From Escherichia phage inny, in sequence record MN850601.1: 64,000 nucleotides of DNA, one strand, 5' to 3'. Positions 15,324-15,990 of the stretch are shown here, one piece after another. The notes under the pieces are model-generated. The model saw only the letters and a program-made list of their open reading frames with translations, did no database searches and was not told the DNA's origin. Made by a program: the position numbers and the translations under genes. Each line of letters opens with the position of its first letter. Position 1 is the first letter of the stretch.

Positions 15324-15755
15324 ATGATGATACTGACTATGTTAATAAACCTACTGAAGAATAAATGGGTTAGGTATTTTGTTCTTATTATAGCACTGTT
15401 TGGTGGTTTGTATGTTGGTTTAAACAAATTACACGATGACGTGTATACACAAGGCTACAATGCAGGTGTTGCTAAACAAGAACAAATATTACAACAAAAC
15501 CAAATTAAAGCCAAACAGCAATTCGATATCTTACAAGCAAAAGCAGATTCAGAAAGATCTAAATTGAATGAAAAAATTCATTCATTAACGAAAGAAAGAA
15601 ATGATCTTCTTACACAACTGGATAAGAAGAGTAATAACATAACACAAGAGAGAATAGATTATGCGAAAACATCTTCTGGCGCTATGTCTTGTTTTAGCCC
15701 TAATGATGACGGGTTGCGCATCATCAACAACAGCTTCCCAGCCTCTACTGATTGA
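15324..15755 (+). CDS. putative i-spanin (Rz-like): N-terminal TM helix plus coiled coil
   Basis: 143 aa; hydrophobic VRYFVLIIALFGGLYVGL followed by Gln/Lys-rich heptads; overlapped by a lipoprotein ORF in another frame. Confidence 0.5.
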   Translation: MMILTMLINLLKNKWVRYFVLIIALFGGLYVGLNKLHDDVYTQGYNAGVAKQEQILQQNQIKAKQQFDILQAKADSERSKLNEKIHSLTKERNDLLTQLDKKSNNITQERIDYAKTSSGAMSCFSPNDDGLRIINNSFPASTD

Positions 15756-15990
15756 GCAGTGTAAAGCTGTAGTAACACAACAAATAAAAGCCCCTGATTC
15801 TGTCAGTATGGAAAAACCATCTACCCCTGTTTTATATACCCCTAATCAAATAAAGAAAGGAGTTACAAGATCAGAGGTAGTTGATAATCAAACTTTAAAC
15901 AACGCTTTGTGGGAAAAAGATAGGATAAAACTTATCAGTTTACAAAACTATATTAAAACATTACAAAGTGAAGGAATAATTTCTAATTAG
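15661..15990 (+). CDS. putative o-spanin (Rz1-like outer-membrane lipoprotein)
   Basis: 109 aa; signal peptide ending LALMMTGC (lipobox-like Cys); starts inside the 3' end of the i-spanin gene in a different frame. Confidence 0.5.
   Translation: MRKHLLALCLVLALMMTGCASSTTASQPLLIEQCKAVVTQQIKAPDSVSMEKPSTPVLYTPNQIKKGVTRSEVVDNQTLNNALWEKDRIKLISLQNYIKTLQSEGIISN

Follow-up and report, generated by a model that had tools for sequence, protein, structure and literature searches.

A probable overlapped two-component spanin directly upstream of terL in a phi92-like coliphage

Two overlapping open reading frames (ORFs), at 15324-15755 and 15661-15990 of a 64,000-nucleotide (nt) stretch of DNA from Escherichia phage inny (MN850601.1; this whole stretch is hereafter the window), encode with a probability of roughly 90% the two-component spanin of a phi92-like (Justusliebigvirus) coliphage. 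The function of the pair is assigned from sequence features, and most likely it is to break the host outer membrane when infection ends. Across 14600-18100 the window is 99.3% identical at the nucleotide level to Escherichia phage alia and 99.2% to phi92; since both belong to Justusliebigvirus and are about 99% identical to it, the window is on these identities part of the genome of a phi92-like virulent myophage (Justusliebigvirus, subfamily Stephanstirmvirinae). The spanin pair of phi92-like phages is already catalogued, and the finding, which is correct but known, is an ordinary one because the phi92 pair with matching lengths and overlap stands in a published spanin database (SpaninDB). 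Both ORFs appear in the ORF list on the plus strand at the coordinates given in an earlier note on this DNA, which had been made from the sequence alone. The inner-membrane subunit (i-spanin), the outer-membrane lipoprotein subunit (o-spanin), their parts and the gene that follows them are listed here, with lengths in amino acids (aa).

15324..15755, plus strand: i-spanin gene, 143 aa, ortholog of phi92 gp118 (ORF list; PHROG 4297; SpaninDB phi92 length 143 aa)
15366..15422, plus strand: predicted N-terminal transmembrane (TM) helix of the i-spanin, residues ~15-33, N-in/C-out (Kyte-Doolittle; AlphaFold2 helix; relatives)
15426..15683, plus strand: long periplasmic helix of the i-spanin, with a predicted coiled coil, residues ~35-120 (AlphaFold2; SpaninDB Pepcoil)
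15690..15692, plus strand: Cys123 of the i-spanin, its only periplasmic (and single) cysteine, in the conserved tail SCF.PNDDGL.IIN.SFP
15646..15652, plus strand: weak Shine-Dalgarno-like AAGAGAG, 8 nt before the o-spanin ATG (putative; read by eye from the sequence)
15661..15990, plus strand: o-spanin gene, 109 aa precursor and 91 aa mature lipoprotein (ORF list; PHROG 1267; SpaninDB phi92 lengths)
15661..15717, plus strand: lipoprotein signal peptide of the o-spanin, lipobox M-T-G-C, with Cys19 (15715-15717) as predicted lipidation site (PROSITE-style pattern)
15661..15755, plus strand: 95-nt overlap of both reading frames (ORF coordinates; identical in SpaninDB phi92)
15760..15762, plus strand: Cys34 of the o-spanin (mature Cys16), its only free periplasmic cysteine (invariant in alignment)
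15868..15969, plus strand: predicted C-terminal helix of the o-spanin, residues 70-103 (AlphaFold2 pLDDT 82-89; conservation)
15999..18083, plus strand: terL, large terminase subunit (PHROG 979, expect value (E) 4.8e-221; Pfam Terminase_6N)

Each protein matches a family named 'Rz-like spanin' over most of its length, the i-spanin PHROG 4297 (E 1.1e-40, residues 2-140 on profile positions 1-129 of 130) and the o-spanin PHROG 1267 (E 2e-20, residues 1-108 on profile positions 2-92 of 119). The i-spanin is 97-99% identical to Justusliebigvirus proteins labelled i-spanin or Rz-like spanin. An N-terminal TM helix and a periplasmic coiled coil had been described for it in the earlier note, and both are borne out. 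Residues 15-33 (WVRYFVLIIALFGGLYVGL) form the best 19-residue Kyte-Doolittle window (1.84) and are preceded by K12, K14 and R17, and the N-terminal hydrophobic segment is kept in the i-spanins of all six relatives examined. A single-sequence AlphaFold2 model has one continuous helix over residues 14-120, with a block-mean confidence (pLDDT) of 89-98 for residues 21-110 and values above 90 across about that same range, while the last 23 residues (121-143) are unstructured in this monomer model. For the phi92 i-spanin, SpaninDB gives one Pepcoil coiled coil at residues 54-115 (PMC6139136). Kyte-Doolittle, AlphaFold2 and the relatives together describe a small type II inner-membrane protein with a single N-terminal TM helix and a periplasmic C-terminal domain, as is expected of an i-spanin. 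Its Cys123 is invariant in a six-sequence alignment that reaches down to 34% identity. The i-spanin could instead start at the in-frame positions 15327 or 15339, and the BME3 annotation begins at the equivalent of 15339.

The N-terminus of the o-spanin reads MRKHLLALCLVLALMMTGC (in a longer stretch, MRKHLLALCLVLALMMTGCASS) and is made up of an N-terminal region with positive charge, a hydrophobic core of 12 residues and a lipobox. The lipobox-like signal that had been noted in this second gene fits a PROSITE-style pattern, by which MRKHLLALCLVLALMMTG would be cleaved off before CAS, leaving Cys19 with Ala at +2. All relatives compared keep G18 and C19, and at position -3 they carry M, I or V. 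In the Lol pathway of E. coli, Asp at +2 keeps a lipoprotein in the inner membrane; because the +2 residue here is Ala and not Asp, the o-spanin is predicted to be sorted to the outer membrane, and the pattern match thus gives an outer-membrane lipoprotein signal with a lipobox Cys and without Asp at +2. The lipobox of the phAPEC8 o-spanin is MMTG in SpaninDB (PMC6139136). Residues 70-103 (NNALW..DR..L..LQ.Y) are the best-conserved part of the protein, the middle of which is disordered and linker-like in the AlphaFold2 model; for the phi92 o-spanin, SpaninDB reports 36% helix by Jpred (PMC6139136). An AAGAG likewise stands upstream of the o-spanin gene in Tr1 and KP2025.

The o-spanin is encoded in the +1 frame relative to the i-spanin and extends 235 nt past the i-spanin stop. 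That a lipoprotein gene overlaps the first gene in a different frame, as had been claimed, is thereby confirmed (95 nt, +1). The further description of this as the typical Rz/Rz1 arrangement was right about the pairing of spanin genes but not about their layout: where adjacent spanin genes with the i-spanin first may be embedded, overlapped or separated, the present ones are of the 'overlapped' type known from P2 LysB/LysC and not 'embedded' as in lambda. When each protein was searched by tblastn against phage records at a coverage of at least 80%, the i-spanin and the o-spanin were each found in 135 records, including those of Phapecoctavirus, Citrobacter phage Tr1 and several Klebsiella phages. 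The o-spanin is 98-99% identical across Justusliebigvirus and about 66% identical to that of Phapecoctavirus. Six diverged relatives were compared at the locus (Tr1, phAPEC8, KP2025, 05F01, KP13-16 and FBKp34), and in all six an ORF with a lipoprotein signal overlaps the 3' end of an ORF with a TM helix by 80-110 nt. Down to 34-37% identity these relatives keep the membrane anchor, the lipobox, the overlap, the single i-spanin cysteine and the free o-spanin cysteine. Invariant in their alignments are G18-C19, the second cysteine and NNALW..DR..L..LQ.Y of the o-spanin and the single cysteine of the i-spanin, so that a periplasmic cysteine available for an intermolecular disulfide is present in both partners (Cys123 and Cys34). 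What follows the pair in the Klebsiella phages KP13-16 and FBKp34 is not terL but tRNA genes.

Differences by codon position were counted in the non-overlapping part of each gene. Against Citrobacter phage Tr1 they number 25/16/46 at positions 1/2/3 in the unique part of the o-spanin and 42/31/70 in that of the i-spanin, and this excess at third positions of its own frame therefore points to purifying selection on both frames as coding sequence. Judged by the PHROG matches, the 135 records and these counts, the signal of the paired ORFs is far above what chance would produce.

In the published survey of spanins, phi92 and phAPEC8 form a two-member family under 'Overlapped' in the i-spanin and o-spanin tables alike (Kongari et al. 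2018, PMC6139136). The SpaninDB entry for phi92 gives architecture 'ovl' on the plus strand, an i-spanin at 55669-56101 and an o-spanin at 56006-56336, an overlap of 95 nt in frame +1, lengths of 143 and 109 aa, and a mature o-spanin of 91 aa (PMC6139136). The offset of 40346 between phi92 and the window therefore identifies the SpaninDB pair as the same two ORFs. Phi92 gp118 and its o-spanin are orthologs of the window pair, with equal lengths, the same 95-nt +1 overlap and the same position directly before terL, and differ from it by a few amino-acid substitutions and nothing of substance. Measured over the aligned region and not over the periplasmic domain alone, identity to phi92 is 97.2% for the i-spanin and 99.1% for the o-spanin, and to phAPEC8 about 50% and about 66%. 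On that measure both proteins are above the identity threshold of the SpaninDB 'phi92' i-spanin and o-spanin families, which require 40% identity or more across 40% or more of the periplasmic domain (PMC6139136).

The labels i-spanin and o-spanin are found in the GenBank records of BME3, EmilieFrey, JohannJBalmer, PaulScherrer, SD2, ESCO5 and SF1-1, those of Nernie, VivaForever and Antha carry 'Rz-like spanin' twice, and the BME3 paper mentions the spanin pair. A small addition made here is that the o-spanin is omitted or started too late in many database records. The phi92 records have no coding sequence for it, and the unannotated phi92 o-spanin lies at 56007-56336. In BME3 the annotated start is 45 nt late, at MTGC (4108-4392 in the compared locus), in EmilieFrey it is 42 nt late, at MMTGC (380-667), and only C-terminal fragments are annotated in the VEcB RefSeq record (15810-15992) and in KP2025 (1630-1788). 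Such late starts (42-45 nt) strip the predicted lipoprotein signal peptide from the o-spanin, and by its sequence the ATG at 15661 is the only start that would give the protein a signal peptide and make it a lipoprotein precursor. Gene callers are known to be biased against overlapped genes (Kongari et al. 2018, PMC6139136). Beyond correct annotation the significance of the pair is slight; phi92-like phages are used in phage-therapy collections. Three unannotated records named 'Campylobacter phage' A150, C3 and B15 (MG065639, MG065656 and MG065650) were also seen to encode coliphage-like spanins. For these two genes only, A150 and C3 are 99% identical to the window and B15, which is Phapecoctavirus-like, about 50%; this may reflect wrong host labels or contaminant records.

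Among known spanins, P2 LysB/LysC have the layout closest to that of the window, with an o-spanin gene that begins, in the +1 frame, before the i-spanin gene has ended and runs on past its 3' end (PMC6139136). The i-spanin of one relative is annotated 'LysB family', but no sequence similarity between the P2 proteins and the window pair was detected in the PHROG, Pfam and NCBIfam scans. The P2 genes lie in a lysis cassette together with holin and endolysin genes, whereas the window pair lies outside one. With lambda Rz/Rz1 the pair would share both its function and its topology, that of a type II helical coiled-coil inner-membrane protein and an outer-membrane lipoprotein with free periplasmic cysteines. 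Lambda Rz1 is, however, fully embedded in Rz, and the window o-spanin only overlaps its i-spanin. Mature lambda Rz1 has 40 aa, is without predicted structure and contains a penta-proline stretch that is essential (Kongari et al. 2018, PMC6139136), whereas the mature window o-spanin has 91 aa, 5.5% proline and a fairly confidently predicted C-terminal helix. Lambda Rz has two coiled-coil domains with a linker between them, where the window i-spanin is predicted to form one continuous helix or coiled coil. Structural diversity of this kind among spanins has been noted before (Kongari et al. 2018, PMC6139136), and the departure from lambda Rz1 makes the pair a reasonable comparison system for studies of spanin mechanism. 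The phages rV5 and PVP-SE1, myophages that the records of phi92 and phAPEC8 cite for similar proteins, also have two-component spanins, and as in the window the lysis genes of these large virulent enterobacterial myophages are reported to be non-clustered. Their spanins are classed in SpaninDB as 'separated' and belong to sequence families other than that of phi92 (PMC6139136).

A mechanism for the window pair can be outlined from the lambda Rz/Rz1 model, whose steps are here applied to proteins for which the sequence features, the overlapped architecture, the conservation and the identity with the phi92 pair are the observed part; lipidation, complex formation, disulfide bonding and membrane fusion are inferred. 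The N-terminal helix would hold the i-spanin in the inner membrane, N-in/C-out, and the protein would extend a helix of about 85 residues, a predicted coiled coil, into the periplasm. The o-spanin would be exported, receive its lipid at Cys19 and, its +2 residue being Ala, end up in the inner leaflet of the outer membrane. Binding between the C-terminal regions of the two proteins would then form a bridge across the periplasm through the peptidoglycan mesh, and each subunit probably homodimerises by a disulfide at its single free cysteine (Cys123 of the i-spanin, Cys34 of the o-spanin). Periplasmic cysteines for intermolecular disulfides are near-universal in spanins and occur in 507 of 528 two-component systems (Kongari et al. 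2018, PMC6139136). With the peptidoglycan destroyed by the endolysin, the spanin complexes would be free to move sideways, change shape and collapse, and in collapsing they would fuse the inner and outer membranes and so remove the last barrier to phage release.

A variant of this scheme, which we regard as rather doubtful, is that phi92-type spanins bridge and fuse the membranes otherwise than lambda Rz/Rz1 do. The helices of the i-spanin and o-spanin may be zipped into a heteromeric coiled coil in a SNARE-like manner, and the pair would perhaps be expressed with the packaging and structural genes and not from a lysis cassette. The idea takes its basis from the uninterrupted i-spanin helix and from the long o-spanin, which has a conserved C-terminal helix and is without a proline-rich region, and it agrees with the structure models and the conservation. 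That the structural route to fusion differs among spanins has been suggested before (Kongari et al. 2018, PMC6139136).

Several observations weigh against the identification of the two ORFs as a spanin. No Pfam or NCBIfam model, those of lambda Rz/Rz1 included, is significant for either protein, and the best Pfam matches are unrelated coiled-coil noise (E 5e-4 or worse); membership of the lambda Rz/Rz1 sequence family was rejected on this ground, the functional analogy being kept. Position -3 of the o-spanin lipobox is Met, which is not among the L, V and I of the strict consensus. The mature o-spanin is long (91 aa), poor in proline (5.5%) and partly helical, unlike lambda Rz1. No obvious Shine-Dalgarno sequence was seen on inspection before the i-spanin, and a note in the phi92 record agrees. 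The pair also lacks the location in a lysis cassette that is common to spanins, although not defining: no holin or endolysin gene adjoins it, and it stands at the head of packaging and structural genes. Finally, literature searches found no experimental test of the phi92-type spanin family, for which all annotations trace to sequence features.

Three other readings of the pair have to be weighed; the conserved pairing, the PHROG matches and the membrane anchor speak against each of them. Some phage lipoproteins, for example T5 Llp and the Cor proteins, serve other purposes, and a very improbable possibility is that the 143-aa protein alone is functional and the overlapping frame encodes a non-lysis lipoprotein of this sort, acting in superinfection exclusion or receptor blocking. 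The proline-poor, partly helical make-up of the long mature o-spanin would suit such a protein, as would the many genome records that omit or truncate it. Yet the lipoprotein ORF overlaps the 3' end of the i-spanin wherever it was examined, each of the two being present in 135 records, one free cysteine is conserved in each partner, the o-spanin matches an 'Rz-like spanin' family, and between genera it is the more conserved of the two proteins (66% as against 50%). Slimmer still is the chance that the pair is an antiholin or lysis-inhibition system like T4 RI/RIII that controls lysis timing or superinfection. T4 RI resembles the i-spanin in being small and in joining an N-terminal anchor to a periplasmic domain, the pair lies apart from holin and endolysin genes, and the phi92 record has a 'putative rIII lysis inhibition accessory protein' among nearby tRNA genes (1751-1879 in the compared locus). 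No RI or RIII family similarity was found in the PHROG, Pfam and NCBIfam scans, however, and a lipoprotein partner in a conserved overlapped layout is a hallmark of spanins and not of antiholins.

Small terminase subunits (TerS) are small, helical, oligomeric proteins whose genes usually come directly before terL. The 143-aa coiled-coil protein occupies that place, is helical and comes from a region where no TerS is annotated among relatives, but its identity as TerS or another packaging factor, the least credible of the three readings, was rejected: the protein has a clear N-terminal TM helix with positive charges on the N-terminal side, belongs to a spanin family (PHROG 4297) and gave no DNA-binding or terminase family match in the PHROG, Pfam and NCBIfam scans, a packaging role would leave the overlapped lipoprotein partner unexplained, and the linkage to terL is not conserved, tRNA genes coming next in KP13-16 and FBKp34.

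In the window itself the two-component spanin does lie just upstream of terL, as the earlier note had it. The o-spanin stop is at 15990 and terL begins with a GTG at 15999, 8 nt past the stop and preceded by an AGGAGG site. The three next-upstream ORFs (14254-14580, 14657-14977 and 15115-15288) have no membrane helix and no lysis-family match and belong only to PHROGs of 'unknown function'. A holin or endolysin beside the pair was accordingly rejected, the upstream ORFs being without a hydrophobic segment and the downstream neighbour being terL. The view that the lysis genes are dispersed is thus upheld, with a candidate endolysin about 47 kb and a candidate holin about 23 kb away:

63306..63815, minus strand: candidate endolysin, a SleB-like hydrolase of the cell wall whose N-terminal signal peptide ends in VVAQA before EA (Pfam Hydrolase_2, E 6.5e-20; PHROG 938 'endolysin', E 1.5e-20; BME3 paper)
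39347..39592, plus strand: candidate holin, a small membrane protein of 81 aa encoded within the baseplate/tail-fibre module (PHROG 1322 'membrane protein', E 4.7e-27)

This dispersal is already in the literature. For the SleB-like secreted hydrolase, the position and family named at the outset proved right and the strand has been corrected to minus; its VEcB ortholog is called 'endolysin' in RefSeq. The signal peptide looks cleavable and of Sec type (VVAQA/EA), and the protein would therefore be a secreted and not a holin-released endolysin, which would imply lysis control by membrane depolarisation. The 81-aa protein is indeed a membrane protein, with a clear hydrophobic segment at residues 22-40 and a second, shorter one, but its role as a holin is only that of a candidate. 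A possible class II holin of 81 residues is mentioned in the BME3 paper, and the assignment is a weak one. Also in the tail-fibre module, a 113-aa protein at 43279-43620 (plus strand) has an N-terminal hydrophobic helix and then a coiled-coil-like region, a topology that looks like that of an i-spanin or a tail-fibre assembly factor. The VEcB RefSeq record labels its ortholog 'lipoprotein', although no lipobox is present.

Upstream of the pair, a strong terminator-like hairpin (14591-14615) has a stem of 10 base pairs and a T run, and downstream of the hairpin comes a weak sigma-70-like promoter site with a TG extension (14638-14666), both of them consensus matches only. This succession suggests that the pair is transcribed together with terL and the portal gene, and at 14591-14666 the tRNA/early region may give way to the spanin-terL-portal unit. 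Many phage tRNA genes stand in a block close upstream (~13400-14250), and insertions among the tRNAs vary between relatives (phi92 compared locus 75-2600); VEcB has an HNH endonuclease gene there (13205-13564 in the compared locus).

Downstream, TerL residues ~38-202 resemble by eye a mini-intein splitting the Walker A motif (GGAAG/CVSAET to HIFVTGN/SGKS). Residues 42-198 matched no Pfam family at E up to 10 and gave only noise in a PDB sequence search. An intein was rejected, the PHROG 979 profile spanning residues 27-691 without a large insertion and neither Pfam nor PDB lending support. TerL of the T4 type normally has a long N-terminal region ahead of Walker A, and the stretch is probably such a region; in some relatives TerL is annotated as 'terminase with N-terminal endonuclease domain'. 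The 106-aa protein encoded at 14657-14977 (plus strand; phi92 gp115; PHROG 3330, unknown function) is basic at its N-terminus (KRGRGRPT) and acidic at its C-terminus. Its gene stands at the beginning of the transcription unit that leads to terL, and it is a possible TerS candidate because no small terminase subunit is annotated in the relatives.

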